Source: Candidatus Latescibacterota bacterium | Lineage (GTDB): Bacteria > Latescibacterota > UBA2968 > UBA8231 | DNA: 39,501 bases | Direction of reading: 5' to 3' | Assembly (NCBI GenBank): GCA_022820705.1 | Contig: JAJEEZ010000439.1 | Span: forward strand, 1 to 39,501 | Shown here: positions 31,655-39,501 of the stretch, in pieces | Numbering within the stretch: the stretch's first letter is position 1 | Layout: each line of letters begins with the position of its first letter | Notes under the pieces: generated by a model | The model's input: only the letters and a program-made list of their open reading frames with translations | Databases searched by the model: none | What the model was told of the DNA's origin: nothing | Program-made: the position numbers and the translations under genes

Positions 31655-32183
<529 letters not shown>

Positions 32184-32256: not shown

Positions 32257-33501
32257 TTAGCGCAATCGCCCCGCGCCATCAAACACCATATCAGCCAGCG
32301 CGCCGGTTTGCTCTAAGTCGGGATGGTCGCCGAACTCTCGCAGCAGGCTGGCGGAGAGTTGGATGTGGCCGATGTCGAGGGTGTTTTTGATGCGGACGAC
32401 GCGCGCCTGTTCGGGATTGGCGAGGTTCTGCACCGCAAGCGCGGCTTCAATGGCCTCGCGGTCGGTTGCCATGACGACTGGGATGTACGCGCGATTGAGG
32501 AAGGTGGTGGTGAAGACGTTGGCGTACGTGGCCTCGAAGTCGATGCGCTCGTGCAGGCGGCGGGTAATGATGTCGGCGAGGCCGACGCCGTTGGCATTGC
32601 CGTGGGTTTCGTCGGTTAGGTCGAGTACCACGATGCGAGCCGCACCTGGGGACTCTGGCTCTTTGACGCCGGGCAGGAGCATGCGGCCGACGACGTTGGT
32701 GTCCATGCCCGTGCCCGAGATATTCTTGCCGATTTGCTCGATGATCAGCAGGTCGATGCCTTGGACGAAGAGGCGGGGCATGGCGCGCCGCGCTTCCTCC
32801 AAAAGCTGCGGCTCGCGGCTTTGGAACTGCCTAGGTTGCAGGGCTTCGACGCGGAGCGTCTCTTCATAGGCGTTTTCGACGAGGGCCACACCCATGAGAA
32901 TCGGCGCTTGGTCGAGGATGCAGCGGCCCCAAGCCGGGATCAGGCGGGCGAGGCTTTCGGCACCCCCGGCGTGGGCGATGGTCGCACCTTTGTGGCTGCC
33001 TAGGCCAATGGTCATCATCTTCATCAGGCCGCTCTCAAAGGTCCCGCGAAAGGAGGTGTGCGGCTTGACGCGGTTGACGAGCACCACGCCATCGGCTTCG
33101 GTCGCGAGCCGGTTGAGTAGTACGGGGGTGCCGTCGTCGAGTTGGCCTACCTCGACGACATCCATAGTTGCCTCGACTGGGCAGCCCATGCTCTCGGCGT
33201 CGAGACCGTAGCTGGCGAGCACTTGCTTTTGACCTTGAGCCGTAGCGCCGCCGTGGCTGCCCATAGCTGGCAGCAGGAACGGCTTGCCGCCGGCCTCTTT
33301 GACGCAGTCGATGACGGTGCGGGTGATGAGCGGGATATTGGCGATGCCACGGCTGCCGCCCGTAACGGCGATTCGCGCACCGGGAGCGATGGCATCGGCT
33401 AGGCCGGCGTGCGCTAGCTGGTGGCGGACTTCGCCGGCCACGTCGGCGAGCGAGTCGCTGGCAAAGTGCTGCTTGACCGGGGCCATTTGTGGTAGTTGCA
33501 C
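32257..33501 (-). CDS. LarA-like / DUF2088 (lactate racemase N-terminal domain) family protein, tentative
   Basis: This is the in-frame tail of ORF 32257..33882. GTG at 33501 has AGAGG 8 nt upstream; the alternative is ATG at 33486. The pattern RIAVTGGSRGIANI...LPAMGSHGGAT..GQ parallels LarA's TR...AtGtHR arrangement. This call rests on recall only. Confidence 0.5.
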   Translation of the reverse strand: MQLPQMAPVKQHFASDSLADVAGEVRHQLAHAGLADAIAPGARIAVTGGSRGIANIPLITRTVIDCVKEAGGKPFLLPAMGSHGGATAQGQKQVLASYGLDAESMGCPVEATMDVVEVGQLDDGTPVLLNRLATEADGVVLVNRVKPHTSFRGTFESGLMKMMTIGLGSHKGATIAHAGGAESLARLIPAWGRCILDQAPILMGVALVENAYEETLRVEALQPRQFQSREPQLLEEARRAMPRLFVQGIDLLIIEQIGKNISGTGMDTNVVGRMLLPGVKEPESPGAARIVVLDLTDETHGNANGVGLADIITRRLHERIDFEATYANVFTTTFLNRAYIPVVMATDREAIEAALAVQNLANPEQARVVRIKNTLDIGHIQLSASLLREFGDHPDLEQTGALADMVFDGAGRLR

Positions 33502-33512
33502 GGCAGGTACCT

Positions 33513-34082
33513 CTATCCTTCGCCGACTAGGGCGGTGCGCAGGCGCTGGGCGCGTTCGCCGATCGGCAGGGCCGGTTTGGGCACCGGCTCGGTAGCCGGG
33601 GCGATTTTCCAGATAAAGACGACCGGGCCTTCTTCCGCAAAGTGCTGGTCGAGCTTGGCGTCGAAATCGTCGTCGGTGTCGATGGTATAGACGCGCTGGA
33701 GGCCGGCCCCACGGCAGATTTGCTCGTAGTCGATGAAGGCGGCTCCGGGCACGGGCTGACTGCCGGTGACTTCGTACGTGCCGTTTTCCGTGATGACGAG
33801 GGTTAGATTCGGGGCCGGGCGCTGGGCCAAGGTGACGAGGACGCCCAGCGACATCAGGGTGCTGCCGTCGCCGTTGATGCACAAGACCCGGCGCTCGGGC
33901 TGGGCAATGGCCAAGCCCAGCGCAAAGTCGGCGGCGTGGCCCATGGCGCTTTCGACGTGGGCAAAATCCAGCGGGCCGTCAGAGTGCGCGGCCCAGGGCA
34001 TGGCCACGCTCATGGTGGTGACCACGACTTCGTCCGTGCGTCTGGCGGCTAGTTTTGCGAGGCAGGTGTATTTGTCGAGCAT
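33513..34082 (-). CDS. TPP-dependent 2-oxoacid decarboxylase, beta (PP-binding) subunit, ComE/phosphonopyruvate-decarboxylase-like
   Basis: ATG at 34082 (MLDKY...). The TPP motif is AMGHAADFALGLA...VLCINGDGSTLMSLGVL...NLTLVITENGTYEVTG. Confidence 0.75.
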   Translation of the reverse strand: MLDKYTCLAKLAARRTDEVVVTTMSVAMPWAAHSDGPLDFAHVESAMGHAADFALGLAIAQPERRVLCINGDGSTLMSLGVLVTLAQRPAPNLTLVITENGTYEVTGSQPVPGAAFIDYEQICRGAGLQRVYTIDTDDDFDAKLDQHFAEEGPVVFIWKIAPATEPVPKPALPIGERAQRLRTALVGEG

Positions 34083-34083
34083 C

Positions 34084-34578
34084 TTATGCAGTCTCCGCAA
34101 CCAGCAGCACAGCGGTTGGCAGCGAGGTCTCTTGGGCCTTGGCGAACGCGGCGTCGATTTGACCGCAGTCGTCGTCTGTGTGCATGGCGGTGTAGGGAAT
34201 GTTCCAAGCCTTGAGAGTCGGCTCGAAGAAGGTGGCGGCCGTATCGACGCGGGGAGCACCTGGGGCCATAGTTGCGTAGCCTCGGTAGCCGACGAGCATG
34301 ACGAGGGGAATGCCCATGTTGTAGGCCGTGCCGCGCAAGGCGTCGCCGGCCTCCAAAAAGCCCGTGTTCTGGATCAACACGAGCGGATGGGCACCGCCCA
34401 AATACAGGCCGGAGGCCAAGCCGTACGCCTCGCCCTCGCGGCTGGTGAGGATCACTTCGATAGTGTCGTGGTCCCACAGGCGCTCGTACAGGACGCACGA
34501 GCCATTGTCTGGGACCCCTAATACGTGCGTAATGCCGTGCCGTTCAAGGGCGGCGATGATCTTGGCGGCGCTGATCAC
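34084..34578 (-). CDS. TPP-dependent 2-oxoacid decarboxylase, alpha (PYR-domain) subunit, ComD-like
   Basis: GTG at 34578, 4 nt after the upstream stop. HGITHVLGVPDNG...TSREGEAYGLASGLYLGG..PLVLIQNTGFLEAGDAL...GIPLVMLVGYRG. Confidence 0.75.
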   Translation of the reverse strand: MISAAKIIAALERHGITHVLGVPDNGSCVLYERLWDHDTIEVILTSREGEAYGLASGLYLGGAHPLVLIQNTGFLEAGDALRGTAYNMGIPLVMLVGYRGYATMAPGAPRVDTAATFFEPTLKAWNIPYTAMHTDDDCGQIDAAFAKAQETSLPTAVLLVAETA

Positions 34579-34582
34579 GATA

Positions 34583-35779
34583 CTACTCGGCGAAGATCGC
34601 ACGGGTGGCGATGCCGCTCTGATGGCCTTCCTGCTGGATGCCGCCGATAAACTGGGCGGTGCGGCCAGCCGGGGCAGTGCCTGCGTAGTACGCGCTGAAG
34701 GACTCGTTGAAGGCGACCAAACCAGCGCGATTTTGCGCGGAGTCGGCACCAGCGACGATGTAGGCGTTGTTGAAGACGCCGTCCTCTTTGAGACCCGCGC
34801 CGCCAGCTTCCTTGATCCGGGCGTCGAGCGTGCCGAGCTGTTGGCCGGCGTCGCTGCCGCCGACGGCTGAGACGTGGACTTCGCGCACGCCGTGGTGGCG
34901 CAAGCCCGCCCAGGTCGAGAAGCCGTCCTCGATCTGCCCCGAGCGCACGATTTCGACTTCACCGGAGACCACGCGGGGCTGCGGCTCGACGATGCCGTCG
35001 AGGTTGGGGATCCGCGACACCGGGTAAATCAGGCCAGCGGGCCGGTCGTCGCCGTAGTAGTCTGCAAAAACTTGGCGGGTGGTCTCGATGCGCTCCCAAG
35101 TTTTGTCTGGGTCGTCGTCCACGGCGACGAGGATCTCCATGAATACGGTCTGCTTTTTGAAGTCAACGCCTTGTTCGGCAAAGGGCTTGGCGTATTGCTC
35201 TTCGAGGACGAAGCGCATTTCTTCGGCCAAGTCGGAGCCGAGCGTGGTGATCATTTCGCCGTCTCGCTGGTGCATGACCGAGGCACCCGAGGGCTGGTGA
35301 TCGACCCAAGTGCCGTAGTCGATTGTGCCACCGCTGATGGAGACGGTCTCGCCAGCGCAGGCCTTGATCTGGACCTCGAAGAGGGCCGCTGGGTCTGGGA
35401 AGCCTTCCGGGTGGGTGAAGCGGGCCATGCGGTTGGAGCGCATGGGGCCGCCGGTGACCGCGGCGATCATGGCTCCGTAGCAGGAGTTGAAGTCGTTTTT
35501 GCGCTGGTCGCACTCGTCGCGGTCAGCAGATGGGGTGGTCCACAGGACGTCGGTCTTATACACGTCCGACCAGTGGACGCCGCAAATTTCGAGGCCCTTG
35601 TTGAGGTTTTCGATGGTGCCGAACCACTCCGAGCCAACGTCGTTGGCGTATTGGGTGCCGACGTTGCCCGAAGGCTCGACTAGGCGCACGACGTGGCCAT
35701 TGTCGTCGGTGATGATCACTTCGGTGGGGTTGGAAAAGATGGCGATGGGGTTGTGGCGGACGATATTGACTTGGGCCAT
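34583..35779 (-). CDS. Hypothetical protein, 398 aa, no recognised motif; first gene of the decarboxylase/LarA-like operon
   Basis: ATG at 35779 with a GAGGAG RBS (MAQVNIVRHNPIAIF...). The part of ORF 34583..36283 upstream of this ATG has no support. Confidence 0.7.
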   Translation of the reverse strand: MAQVNIVRHNPIAIFSNPTEVIITDDNGHVVRLVEPSGNVGTQYANDVGSEWFGTIENLNKGLEICGVHWSDVYKTDVLWTTPSADRDECDQRKNDFNSCYGAMIAAVTGGPMRSNRMARFTHPEGFPDPAALFEVQIKACAGETVSISGGTIDYGTWVDHQPSGASVMHQRDGEMITTLGSDLAEEMRFVLEEQYAKPFAEQGVDFKKQTVFMEILVAVDDDPDKTWERIETTRQVFADYYGDDRPAGLIYPVSRIPNLDGIVEPQPRVVSGEVEIVRSGQIEDGFSTWAGLRHHGVREVHVSAVGGSDAGQQLGTLDARIKEAGGAGLKEDGVFNNAYIVAGADSAQNRAGLVAFNESFSAYYAGTAPAGRTAQFIGGIQQEGHQSGIATRAIFAE

Positions 35780-35870
35780 GAGCTCCTCGGTTGATTTTGT
35801 GAAAGGTTGCCGCGAATTATATTGCAAAAAAATAGGCGGTCTGCCCAAGATAGACAATAGGGAGGGGCGA

Positions 35871-36550
35871 ATGTCCACCTGCGCCGTACTCTTTGCCAAA
35901 AAACCAGCTCCCGGAGCGGTCAAAACCCGGCTCCAGAGCCATTTGAGTACCTTTGACGCCGCGCGTCTGTACGAGGCTCTGCTGCTGGACTGCGCCACTG
36001 CGCTGCATGCGACACAGGCTGCTGCCAAGGTGGTGGCCTTTACTCCGGCCCATGCTGGAGACGCCCTGCGCACCCTGCTAGCCCCGATTGGCACCTTCGA
36101 GTACGTGCCGCAGATAGGAGCCGATTTAGGACAGCGGATGGAGGGCCTGATGCAGTGGGCCTTTGCGCGAGGGGCCGAGCGGGTGGTCCTCGTCGGCTCG
36201 GACAGCCCTTCTCTGCCGGCCGCGTACATTGACGAGGGGCTGGCGCTTTTACGCGAGAAGGAAGTGGTCTTGGGCCCGAGCATGGACGGCGGCTACTACT
36301 TGGTGGGTCGGCGCAAAGGGAGAGCCGGATATTCCAAGACGTGGCTTGGAGCACCGAGATGGTGTTCGAGCAAACCTTAGGGCGCTTGGGGACGCAGACG
36401 CTCGGCCTGCTGCCGCCTTGGTACGATGTGGATACGCCGACTGATGCTAGGTTTTTAAAGGTGCATCTCGAGGCCTTGGCGCGGGCGGGTAGTAGCCAAG
36501 GACAGCACAGCTTGGCCGTGTTGCGCGACTTGAAGCTGCCACTACCCTAG
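35871..36550 (+). pseudogene. DUF2064 / TIGR04282-type (MobA/CofC-like nucleotidyltransferase fold) gene with a -1 frameshift near 36318-36322
   Basis: ATG at 35871 (GGGAGGGG RBS) opens CAVLFAKKPAPGAVKTRL...GADLGQRM...LVGSDSPSL...LGPSMDGGYYLVG in frame 0. The conserved continuation (S)RIFQDVAWSTEMVFEQTL...WYDVDTPTD is in the -1 frame (ORF 36341..36550). Confidence 0.65.
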
Positions 36551-37269
36551 CGGTCGGCTTTCTTGCGGAACAAGGCTTCCCAGCGGTCTAATTCGTCTGA
36601 CGGGCGGGCTTCCGTACCATCGCGGTCAGTCGCGGGTGGCATCTCGTCGGCTTTCTTGCGGAACAAGGCTTCCCACTGATCGAGGTCGTCCGGGTCGAGA
36701 GGTGGGTGAGCTTCGGTGCCGTCTCGGGTAGATGCTGGTGCCTTCGGTGCTTGGTCGGCTCCCTTGTGGAACAGTTTTTCCCACTGATCGAGTTCGTCCG
36801 GGTCGAGAGGTGGGTGAGCTTCGGTGCCGTCGCGACCGGGCGCAGGCGTGGATTCGTTCGACTCCTGAATAGGTTCGGTGAGTTCGTCGAGAAAATCCTC
36901 AGAACAGGTCGAGCGGATCTTGTGGCGCGTTGCGCTGCGCTGGACTGCGCGGTCCGAGCTGATGACCCGCAGCCACTTGGCACCGTGCTTTTGCGCGACC
37001 GCCTGCGCGATTAGGTCGTCGGCTTGCTGAGGGTAGCGCGAGAATTCTATGGTGACGTGCGGGCCACTTGCACTCGCTGCGCTCGACGATTCGCCGGTGC
37101 CGTCGTAATACAGGGTAATGTGCTTGTTGGCGCGGCGGCCATAGGCGGCGAGTGCCTGCTGCAGGCGGTTGCGCGCTCGTTCCAGCGAGTCGCCTCGGCC
37201 TTGGAAAAGCTGGCTCGCTTTGATGAGGTTGTAGCCGTCTATGAGCAGGTGTTCTTTCTTGGTGGCCAC
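36547..37269 (-). CDS. YacP-like NYN (PIN-like) domain RNA-binding/RNase protein with three C-terminal acidic repeats
   Basis: GTG at 37269 with GAGGA 9 nt upstream. HLLIDGYNLI...ITLYYDG...ADDLI...LRVISSDRAVQ matches the YacP/Rae1 pattern. The 5' 220 codons of ORF 36547..37929 overlap the kinase gene and are discounted. Confidence 0.75.
   Translation of the reverse strand: MATKKEHLLIDGYNLIKASQLFQGRGDSLERARNRLQQALAAYGRRANKHITLYYDGTGESSSAASASGPHVTIEFSRYPQQADDLIAQAVAQKHGAKWLRVISSDRAVQRSATRHKIRSTCSEDFLDELTEPIQESNESTPAPGRDGTEAHPPLDPDELDQWEKLFHKGADQAPKAPASTRDGTEAHPPLDPDDLDQWEALFRKKADEMPPATDRDGTEARPSDELDRWEALFRKKADR
36551..36840 (-). repeat. Three imperfect tandem coding repeats (93 and 108 nt spacing)
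   Basis: The tcggct[tt/cc]cttg[c/t]ggaaca...ttcccac/gtgatcgag... units start at 36554, 36647 and 36755. They encode RDGTEA(HPPLDP)D(E/D)LD(Q/R)WE(K/A)LF(H/R)K(G/K)AD. Confidence 0.85.
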
Positions 37270-37280
37270 GGCTGTCGTCC

Positions 37281-39122
37281 TCACGCAAGGTGGATGCCTT
37301 GGGCATTGAGCTGATAGGAGACCACTCTGCTGTTGGCAAAGGCCGCGTGTTGGCGCAGCTTGTCGAGTCTGGTGTGCAACTCGTCTGCTTGCCCCTCGGC
37401 AGCGATGAGGAGGGCAAAGCCGCCGCCGCCGGCACCGGTGAGAAGCCCGCCCTCGGTTAGGTCGGTGATCTGGGGATTTTCGAAAAGGTGTTGCAAAGCG
37501 TCGTTGGTGGCTTGGGGGTCGAGGATGCAGCGCAACTGCCAGTAGCGGTTGGCTAGCCGCCCGAGATCGGCGTATGCGCCCGCGCTCAGTGCGGTCACCA
37601 TTTCGTCGTGAATGGCCAGTGACTCGCGGATGGCTCCATAGCGCTGGTGGTCGCGCAATAGATAGGCGTCGAGGACGACGTTGAGGCCGCGGGTTGCCGA
37701 GCGCGATATCCCCGTGTCGAAGAGCACGACTCGCTCGGTGAACAAGCGCTCGTCCACCTCGGTGAGGAATGTGCGCTCGGGCGCGGGTAGGCCGTCGGTC
37801 GGCGGCGCGTAGAAGTTCTTGATGGCCGAGGGGCCACCGCTGGCACCGCGCGCATCCTGCCAACCGCTGTTGAGGCCGAGGCTCTGTTCGAGCATGAGGC
37901 TTTGGTCGTAGAGGCCGGGGTATTCGCACGCGGGCGCGGCGTAGGGGTGACCGGAGAGATGGTAGAGCATTTTGAGAATGGCGGCGGACAAGACGCCGCT
38001 GGTTCCTAGGCCGGACCCTTGTAGAACCTTACTGCTGGTGGTGATTTCCAAGCCACCGCCACCGGTAAAGGCGGCGATGTCTTGGATGACGTCTGTGGAA
38101 TTTGGCCGGACGATGCCCGCGTGTACTAGCCCTTGTTTGACCAACCGCAGGGCTTCGTCGCCGCTGCGGCGGTAGGCAAAGAACAGCTCGCTGACGGTTG
38201 CGGCCGCGCTTTGTTTGCTGGCTTCAAAGTCGGCCTTGAAGCCCCGCGAGCGCGAGCGGAGGATGAGTTGGGGTTCGGCTAGCCTCCGTGCGGAGACTTC
38301 CAGCGGTGGTTGGGCTCGCTCTTCCCGGCCCTGTTGCAGATTGACGGCGATATTGAGGGTTTTTCCCCCTTGTTCTTTACTGCGCAGGTGATTGTCCGAG
38401 GCATTGGCGCTGGAGATCCCTAGGCGCAGGGGCGATTGGATGCAAAAGGCTTGCTCGTAAGCCGCTTCGGTCATGCGCGGCGCGGCGGCGCGGCCACTGT
38501 CGAGGGCGGCCAAGCTGTGCTGGAGGTCGATGCTCTGTAGTTGGTTGATCCGCGCCTCGTAGGCTGAGGCCAGTTTGTCGATGTGCTTGGCTTCTTTGAG
38601 TTGGACAATGTCTTGGCTGTCGATGCAGCAGGGCGGCAGCGCTCGTCGCCAGACTCGCGGTTCGGCGGCGAGCGTTCGGTAGATGTCGGCCATGATGCGG
38701 GCAACGCGCATCCCGCGCAGGCAGCGGATGGAGGCATCGCATTCTTCTAGGTAAGCATTGAGGCGTTTGAGCACCTGCAAGAGCGCCTTGGGAGATTTGG
38801 GGGGCAAAAGGCGCAGCAATTGGCGGTGGTCGAGATCGACTAAACCATCGACTAGATCGACGGTTAGTTGCGGCAGTTCTTGGGCGACCGCAGCGCCGAA
38901 GAGCGCTTCCCACTCGTCGGGCGTGGTTGCCGCGAGAAGCGCGTCGATGGCCGCAGGGGTTTCCAAACGGGACAAAAGCGACCGATTGAAGAGCAGATCG
39001 CGGAGAAAGCGGCGTTTTTCCTCGGGTTTGCCGGTCCGTGCTGCGTCGAGGATGTGATCGACGAGCGATTGGACTTCGCGCAAATCAGCGGCTTGTTCGA
39101 GGCGTTCGAGGAATGCTTTCAT
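37281..39122 (-). CDS. GHMP-family sugar kinase (fucokinase-type) with a novel ~230-aa helical N-terminal extension
   Basis: ATG at 39122 (MKAFLERLEQ). GHMP motif II is LQGSGLGTSGVLSAAILKML and motif III-like is TGAGGGGFALLIA. Confidence 0.75.
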   Translation of the reverse strand: MKAFLERLEQAADLREVQSLVDHILDAARTGKPEEKRRFLRDLLFNRSLLSRLETPAAIDALLAATTPDEWEALFGAAVAQELPQLTVDLVDGLVDLDHRQLLRLLPPKSPKALLQVLKRLNAYLEECDASIRCLRGMRVARIMADIYRTLAAEPRVWRRALPPCCIDSQDIVQLKEAKHIDKLASAYEARINQLQSIDLQHSLAALDSGRAAAPRMTEAAYEQAFCIQSPLRLGISSANASDNHLRSKEQGGKTLNIAVNLQQGREERAQPPLEVSARRLAEPQLILRSRSRGFKADFEASKQSAAATVSELFFAYRRSGDEALRLVKQGLVHAGIVRPNSTDVIQDIAAFTGGGGLEITTSSKVLQGSGLGTSGVLSAAILKMLYHLSGHPYAAPACEYPGLYDQSLMLEQSLGLNSGWQDARGASGGPSAIKNFYAPPTDGLPAPERTFLTEVDERLFTERVVLFDTGISRSATRGLNVVLDAYLLRDHQRYGAIRESLAIHDEMVTALSAGAYADLGRLANRYWQLRCILDPQATNDALQHLFENPQITDLTEGGLLTGAGGGGFALLIAAEGQADELHTRLDKLRQHAAFANSRVVSYQLNAQGIHLA

Positions 39123-39180
39123 GTGGTTAGTCAGGGATGAGGGTTGCTGAAAATTATACGCAAAAAACGCGCGCCGCGCA

Positions 39181-39501
39181 TTAGGGAGGGGCGGCATCGC
39201 CCATGAGTTCGCCAGCCTCGATTGCGAACTCGAGGTAGTTTTGTCGCGGAGGTAGCGGGCAGATATAAATGGGATTGTACGCGCAGTATGGGTTATAAGC
39301 GTTATTGAAGTCAATGACATACATGCCATCGTCCTCCCTCGTCAGGCGCGCGTAGCGCCCGCCTCCATACGTGGTGTGGCCGTTGGTCAGATCTTTGAAG
39401 AAGATTTCCGTTTCGCCGGTTTGTGGGCTGCGGTACACCTCCAGCCAAAAATCGTTTTCGCCGAAGGCCGAAACAAAGCGTCCGAATCGCTCAAGCTCGG
39501 T
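39181..39501 (-). CDS. DUF1684 domain protein, 5' end beyond window
   Basis: The reading frame stays open to the window edge by my own translation (TELERFGRFVSAFGENDFWLEVYRSPQTGE...). FKDLTNG.TTYGGGRY...IDFN.AYNPYCAYN....CP.PP..N.L...I.AGE is the DUF1684 signature. Confidence 0.75.
   Translation of the reverse strand, partial: TELERFGRFVSAFGENDFWLEVYRSPQTGETEIFFKDLTNGHTTYGGGRYARLTREDDGMYVIDFNNAYNPYCAYNPIYICPLPPRQNYLEFAIEAGELMGDAAPP

Follow-up and report, generated by a model that had tools for sequence, protein, structure and literature searches.

A conserved operon of Latescibacterota-type bacteria combines a nickel-pincer isomerase lineage, a split thiamine diphosphate decarboxylase and an orphan protein of predicted triple YjgF/RidA-like fold

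Which reactions, if any, bring a nickel-pincer isomerase, the two halves of a decarboxylase and a protein of no recognisable sequence family together in a single operon? The question is raised by four adjacent minus-strand genes, here called g1 to g4, in a stretch of 39,501 nucleotides (nt) from a Candidatus Latescibacterota bacterium (NCBI GenBank assembly GCA_022820705.1, contig JAJEEZ010000439.1, positions 1 to 39,501), which was analysed at its full length and is referred to below as the window. An earlier note, made from the sequence of this DNA, had described a compact operon in which a hydroxyacid epimerase might feed a dedicated 2-oxoacid decarboxylase. We find that bacteria of the Latescibacterota type share the locus as a genuine, conserved operon, whose parts belong to known superfamilies and whose combination of a nickel-pincer nucleotide (NPN)-dependent isomerase, a split thiamine diphosphate (ThDP) decarboxylase and g1 is in no described pathway; no report of such a cluster was found in the literature searched. 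Tentatively, at a probability of about 0.35, we read it as a modular unit of acid-sugar/2-hydroxyacid catabolism in which g4 would epimerise the substrate, g1 would give a 2-oxo acid and g2/g3 would decarboxylate it.

The gene calls uphold the layout first described, with spacings of exactly 4, 1 and 11 nt between g1/g2, g2/g3 and g3/g4. The first gene, g1 (34583-35779, minus strand), opens with ATG, encodes 398 amino acids (aa) and is preceded by the Shine-Dalgarno sequence GAGGAG at 35783-35788. It is followed on the same strand by g2 (34084-34578, GTG start, 164 aa), the predicted alpha subunit of a ThDP decarboxylase with its pyrimidine-binding domain, by g3 (33513-34082, ATG start, 189 aa), the beta subunit of the same decarboxylase with its diphosphate-binding domain, and by g4 (32257-33501, GTG start, 414 aa), a predicted LarA-superfamily NPN-dependent isomerase of NCBIfam group 22. 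An alternative ATG for g4 lies at 33486, and an MQLPxM N-terminus common to the homologues supports the GTG start. Full-length homologues of all four genes at 58-99 % identity are found in dozens of genomes, so that g1 to g4 can be taken as real genes.

Relatives were scanned with one genome per species, giving 80 loci mostly from metagenome-assembled genomes labelled Latescibacterota, with some from Gemmatimonadota, Zixiibacteriota and Handelsmanbacteria. Comparison of gene neighbourhoods, which the earlier note had proposed as a check, found all four genes in the order g1-g2-g3-g4 in 48 of these species-level loci, five of them with birA between g1 and g2. Two further loci (L074 and L075) have g1 followed directly by g4 and no ThDP genes, 26 have g1 in other contexts with g4 not nearby, and in the remaining four the arrangement is ended by a contig edge. 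The four-gene order is kept down to 58-70 % protein identity with median gaps of 4, 1 and 11 nt, and spacings of 3-13 nt persist in lineages that have diverged to 60-70 % identity; between g2 and g3 the gap is at most 18 nt in 49 of 49 loci. A divergent gene of the DUF2064/TIGR04282 family lies directly upstream in every operon-bearing locus, at identities down to 36-55 %.

A second survey was started from g3 and comprised six long-contig look-ups covering seven loci. These share a chromosomal site in which a GHMP-like kinase gene, fabI and the DUF2064 gene are followed by a variable block and then by a convergent rpoN and lptB. The full operon fills the block in two loci, while four look-ups, amounting to five loci of which two are the same place on different contigs (L097/98, L100, L101 and L102), contain (birA)-g2-g3 alone, g1 and g4 both being missing. 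The lineages with g2-g3 only are deeply separated, their g3 proteins sharing 67-76 % identity in pairs, and so are L074 and L075, between whose g1 proteins identity is no more than 64 %. For the comparison of g1 with g4, joint presence was counted in 43 loci of the 80-locus scan and in L096, L103 and L104. No complete locus was seen with g2-g3 plus only one of g1 and g4. g2-g3 is thus a separable module, and g1 and g4 either both occur at the site or are both missing from it, even though they flank g2-g3; g1 and g4 behave as one unit and g2 and g3 as another. As a unit, the operon is thus conserved in its order but not obligate, sister lineages having either g2-g3 or g1-g4 alone. The order is kept among relatives and no known pathway was identified for the cluster, so that neither of the outcomes named at the outset as refuting the proposal was seen.

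In the lineages without g1 and g4, the biotin-protein ligase gene birA (BPL_LplA_LipB and BPL_C domains) lies directly upstream of g2-g3. We located this gene at 11187-12314 in L066 and at 11197-11949 in L077, and also in L076, L078, L079, L097, L100 and L102; together with the constant neighbour fabI it makes a lipid or biotin link of the decarboxylase conceivable. Three Latescibacterota operon loci carry a KduD-like short-chain dehydrogenase/reductase (SDR) gene directly after g4 (305.7 bits against a cut-off of 338.85).

The first of the four proteins had originally been left without any motif, and in Pfam this stands: g1 as a whole has no match, and its three domains scanned singly at E up to 10 gave nothing relevant, RidA (PF01042) included. 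The sole trace was a sub-threshold match to RutC (E 0.079). A word-indexed search returned about 189 clusters, the 120 matches listed being about 365-405 aa long and 65-99 % identical, an exhaustive phmmer search of 1.84 billion 50 %-identity representatives returned one full-length cluster plus fragments, and tblastn against 72,556 plasmids gave no match. By these sequence comparisons g1 appears as an orphan under unusually strong constraint. It can however be placed by its predicted fold. An AlphaFold2 model built from the single sequence was unusable (predicted local distance difference test, pLDDT, of 37) and the protein was remodelled with a 43-sequence alignment, giving a pLDDT of 85.3 and a predicted template modelling (TM) score, pTM, of 0.88. 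The resulting model contains a beta-beta-beta-alpha-beta-alpha-beta-beta unit three times, and hhalign profile self-comparison finds an internal repeat of residues 128-249 against 258-372 (E 0.07, weak support for duplication). The best Foldseek matches in the PDB are cyanuric acid hydrolases, barbiturase and chorismatases at E 3e-8 to 1e-6 and TM 0.4-0.5 (top entries 6dhj, 6bup, 5hy1 and 4bvq), and single-domain RidA/YjgF structures are matched with a target-normalised TM of 0.61-0.69, a probability of 1.00 and 17-24 % identity. We predict that g1 is a new family of known architecture, in which three fused YjgF/RidA-like domains form a Toblerone-like pseudo-trimer.

The Toblerone fold consists of concatenated YjgF monomers (PMC3758960). 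As modelled, g1 would share with the Toblerone cyclic amide hydrolases (AtzD, TrzD and barbiturase) three YjgF-like repeats per chain, but it differs from them in having only 9-12 % identity, no Pfam or hidden Markov model relationship and another genomic context. The 43-sequence alignment shows no invariant lysine, so the three Ser-Lys dyads of these hydrolases are impossible in g1, which has invariant motifs of its own (EPSGNVGTQ, DHQPSG, SNRMARFT and PAGRTAQ). The chorismatases FkbO and Hyg5 (5a3k, 5ag3 and 4bps) resemble g1 in fold only, with TM 0.40-0.51 and 11-13 % identity; neither a sequence match of g1 to the chorismatase family (FkbO, Hyg5, XanB2) nor a shikimate or polyketide context was found. 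In the direction of RidA/YjgF/UK114, each g1 repeat has a conserved arginine near the start of its fifth strand (R117, R246 and R373), at a position matched by eye, not by structural superposition, to the carboxylate-binding Arg of RidA. Some g1 loci adjoin pyridoxal-phosphate (PLP) enzymes and Joint Genome Institute (JGI) auto-annotation names some g1 members RidA, but g1 would be a single-chain fused pseudo-trimer and the RidA Pfam model does not match it. The known chemistry of the YjgF-type fold is the conversion of enamines, imines or enol ethers to 2-oxo acids, or ring-opening hydrolysis.

The surroundings of g1 outside the operon bear on its possible role. In 20 species-level loci (L040 8585-9799 and 19 others) the gene directly upstream encodes a 404-aa aminotransferase-fold protein whose match to Aminotran_1_2 is weak and which falls in no NCBIfam family; it looks like another uncharacterised PLP-enzyme family linked to g1. 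Genes for a fuconolactonase-like amidohydrolase, a DgaE-like PLP ammonia-lyase, a zinc-dependent alcohol dehydrogenase and a family-5 ATP-binding-cassette (ABC) binding protein also lie nearby in such loci. At 5160-8945 of L099 (ENA ERZ28763718 ctg125358) a PhyH-family dioxygenase, g1, an aldo/keto reductase and a metallo-beta-lactamase-fold protein are encoded in this order. In L093 (7208-9203) a sugar-1-phosphate nucleotidyltransferase gene precedes g1, and the cluster adjoins genes for a heparinase II/III-like lyase, a GFO/IDH/MocA oxidoreductase and an acetyl-xylan-esterase-like protein. Judged by their families, the neighbours of lone g1 are again enzymes of acid-sugar or 2-oxoacid type, which we count in favour of an acid-sugar role.

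That g2 and g3 are the two chains of a split ThDP enzyme is borne out by Pfam matches to TPP_enzyme_N (g2, E 5e-12) and TPP_enzyme_C (g3, E 1.2e-19). The cofactor-activating Glu can be read straight from the g2 sequence as Glu48 in SREGEA, and G71-D72-G73...N100 of g3 (GDG-X26-N) aligns residue for residue with GDGS...NNGTY of benzoylformate decarboxylase; the generic signs of a two-subunit ThDP decarboxylase, namely split N and C chains, an activating Glu and GDG-X(24-27)-N, can thus all be recognised in the sequences. The closer assignment to a ComDE/phosphonopyruvate decarboxylase (Ppd) type is right in so far as ComD, ComE and Ppd are the nearest curated models, but the scores are just 17-51 % of the cut-offs: g2 reaches 75.8 bits against 147.95 for TIGR03845 (ComD), g3 98.6 against 221.5 for TIGR03846 (ComE), and the two 53.9 and 93 bits against 312.5 for TIGR03297 (Ppd), with g3 at 109.8 against 240 for PRK06163. 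In the PDB g2 comes closest to 9iz3_A (E 1.9e-11), the alpha subunit of a putative phosphonopyruvate decarboxylase. This structure matches g2 and g3 at E 1.9e-11 and 5.8e-10, and with 9u8q it is the nearest solved split enzyme (E 1e-6 to 2e-11); it is probably RhiEF, which is cited as structurally characterised in PMC12746152.

Characterised two-subunit ThDP decarboxylases were previously confined to the biosynthesis of rhizocticin and coenzyme M; LumK/LumL, which decarboxylate a quinoxaline carboxylate after hydrolytic opening of the pyrimidine ring in riboflavin catabolism, were added in 2025 (PMC12746152). ComDE (acting on sulfopyruvate), RhiEF (phosphonopyruvate) and LumK/LumL have the same alpha/beta split as g2/g3, but their pathway partner genes are not beside g2/g3, which in Latescibacterota occupies a fixed site near fabI, birA and rpoN, unlike the known split decarboxylases. 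Because these three are the sole characterised systems, g2/g3 would be a fourth, a functional-looking but uncharacterised lineage of a rare enzyme type that by its scores is neither ComDE nor Ppd. Two groups of relatives were considered as guides to the substrate. Split ThDP pairs that are equally distant, on Deinococcus and Bradyrhizobium plasmids, sit in generic catabolic clusters followed by aldehyde dehydrogenases and were set aside as giving no clue, and the closest relative of g3 in a cultured organism, on a Gemmatirosa plasmid (45 % identity), lies uninformatively between MacB-like permeases and groES/EL.

The LarA-family assignment of the last gene holds, g4 scoring 537.2 bits against a cut-off of 400 over residues 3-389 with NCBIfam NF052515 (nickel pincer cofactor-dependent isomerase, group 22) and 35.3 bits against a gathering score of 23.3 with Pfam Lar_N (PF09861). 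It also matches DUF362 (25.6 bits versus 24), for which we found no literature giving a tie to the NPN cofactor. Orthologues in L074 and L077 score 527-531 with NF052515 and members from cultured organisms 486-555. The superfamily includes LarA of L. plantarum, malate racemases and the D-gluconate 2-epimerases GntE (Desguin 2020, PMC7583248; Urdiain-Arraiza 2024, PMC11770544), and no characterised group-22 member was found in these two papers. All characterised or solved LarA proteins are very distant from g4 (phmmer E 0.13 to 5HUQ), and a g4-family profile found no match among PDB sequences even at E 10, alignments to LarA being obtained only by single-sequence phmmer. In these, H83 of g4 aligns with His108 of LarA (2YJG alignment) and H148, K161 and H177 with His174, Lys184 and His200 (5HUQ alignment). 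With E values of 0.13-0.33 the pairwise alignments are weak, and it is conservation of the motifs that carries the equivalences: all four residues are invariant in a 16-sequence family alignment from four bacterial phyla and a haloarchaeon, which takes in Bacillota, Pseudomonadota and Actinomycetota members. g4 would keep, by this alignment, the two catalytic His, the NPN-tethering Lys and the Ni-binding His of LarA.

Members of group 22 in cultured bacteria, 41-46 % identical to g4 and passing NF052515, are found in more telling gene contexts. In Paenibacillus cellulositrophicus the order is uxaC, isomerase, SDR, larE, larB, larC, and in Sulfitobacter and Pseudosulfitobacter an altronate-dehydratase-family gene, the isomerase and larC stand together. 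Plasmid pSPTER of Sporomusa termitida carries an enolase-superfamily gene, a tripartite tricarboxylate transporter, the isomerase and UxaA-family genes, while Marinovum algicola has lar genes, a tripartite ATP-independent periplasmic (TRAP) transporter, the isomerase, 2-keto-3-deoxy-6-phosphogluconate (KDPG) aldolase and 2-keto-3-deoxygalactonokinase, and Rubrobacter indicoceani a four-carbon acid-sugar kinase, PdxA and the isomerase. These contexts tie group 22 to the NPN cofactor and to acid-sugar catabolism. The logic of such clusters is compatible with that of the operon in the window, both leading from a 2-hydroxy acid through a 2-oxo(-3-deoxy) acid to cleavage. They differ in their parts, the cultured clusters using UxaA-family or enolase-type dehydratases, kinases, aldolases, transporters and regulators. 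The window operon is without these and has g1 and the ThDP decarboxylase where the cultured clusters have dehydratase, kinase and aldolase; there are likewise no lar genes beside g4, unlike its group-22 relatives, and larB, larC and larE are absent from the window.

From this comparison a three-step scheme can be drawn. The C2 hydroxyl of an acid sugar would first be inverted by the NPN-dependent g4. g1 would then act in place of the sugar-acid dehydratase that adjoins group-22 isomerases elsewhere and yield a 2-oxo(-3-deoxy) acid, from which g2/g3 would remove C1 as CO2 to leave an aldehyde one carbon shorter, the decarboxylation standing in for cleavage by kinase plus aldolase. Here we only infer the acid-sugar substrate class, the order of the steps and any catalysis by g1. 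The scheme needs no external redox cofactor, which fits an operon without a dehydrogenase; the oxidation step between epimerase and decarboxylase that the earlier note had supposed finds no such enzyme in the operon. The pairs g1 and g4 and g2 and g3 could each survive alone because the 2-oxo acid can also be drawn off or provided by other enzymes.

Several observations weigh against this scheme. g2-g3 persist in deep sister lineages without g1 and g4 and are to that extent independent of them, g1 is found without a nearby g4 in 26 of the 80 loci, birA has been inserted between g1 and g2 in five lineages, and the co-variation of g1 and g4 rests on few independent events of gain or loss. The site lies among housekeeping genes (fabI, birA, rpoN, lptB and CTP synthase) and not in a polysaccharide-utilisation locus, so that part of the conservation of order may be inherited synteny. 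The operon has no gene for a transporter, an aldehyde dehydrogenase or a regulator, and tblastn with Paenibacillus, Sulfitobacter and Marinovum queries found no larB, larC or larE in the 10-kb flanks of the 80 loci. Pfam and profile searches give g1 no sequence-level link to any enzyme, and we know of no sugar-acid dehydratase with the YjgF fold.

Much of this would be expected if the four genes were syntenic neighbours with independent jobs, packed together and sharing no single pathway, which is a distinctly possible account, if a less probable one than the catabolic unit. g1 would then have a housekeeping task specific to the lineage, such as the control of metabolite damage by a RidA-like enamine/imine deaminase, g2/g3 would be a core 2-oxoacid decarboxylase of the phylum and g4 an accessory epimerase. 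Such independence agrees with the housekeeping surroundings, with the same site carrying only (birA)-g2-g3 in some lineages and only g1-g4 in others, with the five loci in which birA separates g1 from g2, with the unrelated partners of g1 in the 26 other-context loci, and with one 3.4-Mb contig on which g1 lies about 100 kb away from g2-g3. In the more diverged loci g1 is also slightly more conserved than its neighbours (mean identity 69.8 % versus 65.2 %, 68.2 % and 65.1 %). It accounts less well for gaps of 3-13 nt held through divergence to 60-70 % identity, or for g1 and g4 being co-present or co-absent despite g2-g3 between them and still adjacent without g2-g3 in L074 and L075; the family chemistry of all three modules, moreover, is that of 2-hydroxy, 2-amino or 2-oxo acids.

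A bolder version of the catabolic scheme, which we consider doubtful, makes g1 a new catalytic class of the triple-YjgF fold and an obligate partner of the NPN isomerase, in a route of epimerisation, elimination and decarboxylation that would be undescribed. Acting together, g1 and g4 would convert a 2-hydroxy acid sugar to a 2-oxo acid without drawing on an external redox cofactor, and g2/g3 would decarboxylate the product. In the strongest form hydride would be lent: the NPN enzyme would oxidise the 2-hydroxy acid, decarboxylation would follow and the hydride would be returned to the aldehyde, converting a hydroxy acid on balance to an alcohol and CO2. A role of g1 as an NPN-maturation factor was considered separately and abandoned, since there are loci, and probably whole genomes, in which g1 has no close g4.

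The route for which the earlier note had suggested sulfolactate- or phosphonolactate-like acids would run from a LarA-type racemase through an unidentified dehydrogenase to a sulfopyruvate or phosphonopyruvate decarboxylase, and now seems improbable. There is a genuine need in metabolism for racemisation of sulfolactate, which Chromohalobacter achieves with two opposed dehydrogenases. ComD/ComE and Ppd are the nearest curated models of g2/g3, 9iz3 is the nearest solved two-subunit enzyme and JGI auto-annotation calls many orthologues "sulfopyruvate decarboxylase subunit beta", but only low fractions of the cut-offs are reached, and equally distant split pairs in cultured bacteria sit in unrelated catabolic clusters. 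Group-22 relatives are linked to acid sugars and not to sulfonates or phosphonates, and 3-sulfolactate and phosphonolactate would leave g1 without a role. Partner genes are missing as well. Among the 27 ORFs screened in the window (nearly all of at least 180 aa, in 39.5 kb) none encodes phosphoenolpyruvate (PEP) mutase or a ComA/B/C-type protein, as had been noted before. PEP mutase, ComA/B/C and dehydrogenases of the sulfolactate or sulfopyruvate pathways are absent from the window and from Pfam-annotated contigs, which are the loci that this screen covers, the other loci of the scan not being screened, and sulfolactate dehydrogenase, Xsc and SuyAB are absent from the 27 ORFs and from the Pfam-labelled genes of related contigs.

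The weakest account, which we think very improbable, would have g1 open a heterocycle or cyclic amide as an amidohydrolase and g2/g3 decarboxylate a heteroaromatic or 2-oxo-type carboxylate in the manner of LumK/LumL (PMC12746152), and although the top Foldseek matches of g1 are indeed cyanuric acid hydrolases and barbiturase, their identity to g1 is about 10 % at TM of only 0.4-0.5, the missing invariant Lys precludes three Ser-Lys dyads, the Pfam scan gives g1 no family and hence no match to an AtzD/TrzD model, no other N-heterocycle catabolic genes are present, and g4, which co-varies with g1, would have nothing to do.

Upstream of the operon, a 91-nt intergenic region (35780-35870) between g1 and the divergent DUF2064 gene is the candidate location of the operon promoter and 5′ untranslated region. 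A perfect TATAAT, read from the sequence at 35821-35816 on the minus strand about 40 nt before the g1 start with a T-run ahead of it, was not called by a consensus promoter scan. Scans for sigma-70 promoters and for terminators gave counts no higher than in shuffles, and a terminator-like site within g2 was disregarded; an Rfam scan of the whole window found no riboswitch and no match to any other family.

The gene divergent from g1 (35871-36550, plus strand) encodes a DUF2064/TIGR04282-family protein with a CofC-like nucleotidyltransferase fold (DUF2064 E 1.1e-26; TIGR04282 134.6 bits against a cut-off of 134). Its frame breaks at about 36300-36330: the frame that starts MSTCAVLF ends at 36380, and the conserved C-terminus (...FLKVHLEALARAGSSQGQHSLAVLRDLKLPLP) is read on in a different frame as far as 36550. 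No such break affects the orthologues of L001, L003 and L004, which are 224-253 aa long, and the gene in the window is either a pseudogene or affected by an indel error of the assembly. On its far side lies a YacP-like NYN-domain gene (36547-37314, minus strand), in whose 3′ part (36553-36834) an 81-nt direct repeat occurs three times, 63-89 % identical and spaced by 93 and 108 nt, encoding the repeated C-terminal motif RDGTEAHPPLDPD(E/D)LDQWE.LF.K.AD. YacP orthologues are only 182 aa long (e.g. L066 7810-8358), so the repeat tail seems to be lineage-specific. Beyond it, a 682-aa protein encoded at 37281-39329 on the minus strand resembles in its C-terminal half the fucokinase part of bifunctional fucokinase/fucose-1-phosphate guanylyltransferase, with 138 bits, far below the cut-off, and has no family match in its N-terminal ~290 aa; its gene recurs as a fixed part of the syntenic backbone, in 42 related loci. 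At the other end, 73 nt downstream of g4, two small minus-strand genes of 92 and 87 aa with a 14-nt overlap (31655-32183) look, to judge from their sequences, like a BrnT/BrnA-type toxin-antitoxin pair, with no NCBIfam match. Homologues of the pair occur in only 4-6 related loci, and it is therefore an apparent local insertion between the operon and rpoN.

The operon is made up of one new family, g1, and two uncharacterised lineages of rare enzyme types, g2/g3 and g4. g1 is exceptionally conserved, with at least 65 % identity everywhere it was found, and yet unseen by sequence-family libraries; if its model is right it would be the third case in which the concatenated-YjgF architecture has been put to use independently. 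Of the rare two-subunit ThDP decarboxylases, what would be a fourth lineage is conserved here across an uncultured phylum. For group 22 the operon offers a testable metabolic setting in the young field of NPN enzymes. The host bacteria are thought to degrade marine polysaccharides, and if the proposed cascade is true it would allow them to break down 2-keto-3-deoxy acid sugars by decarboxylation instead of by kinase-plus-aldolase cleavage.

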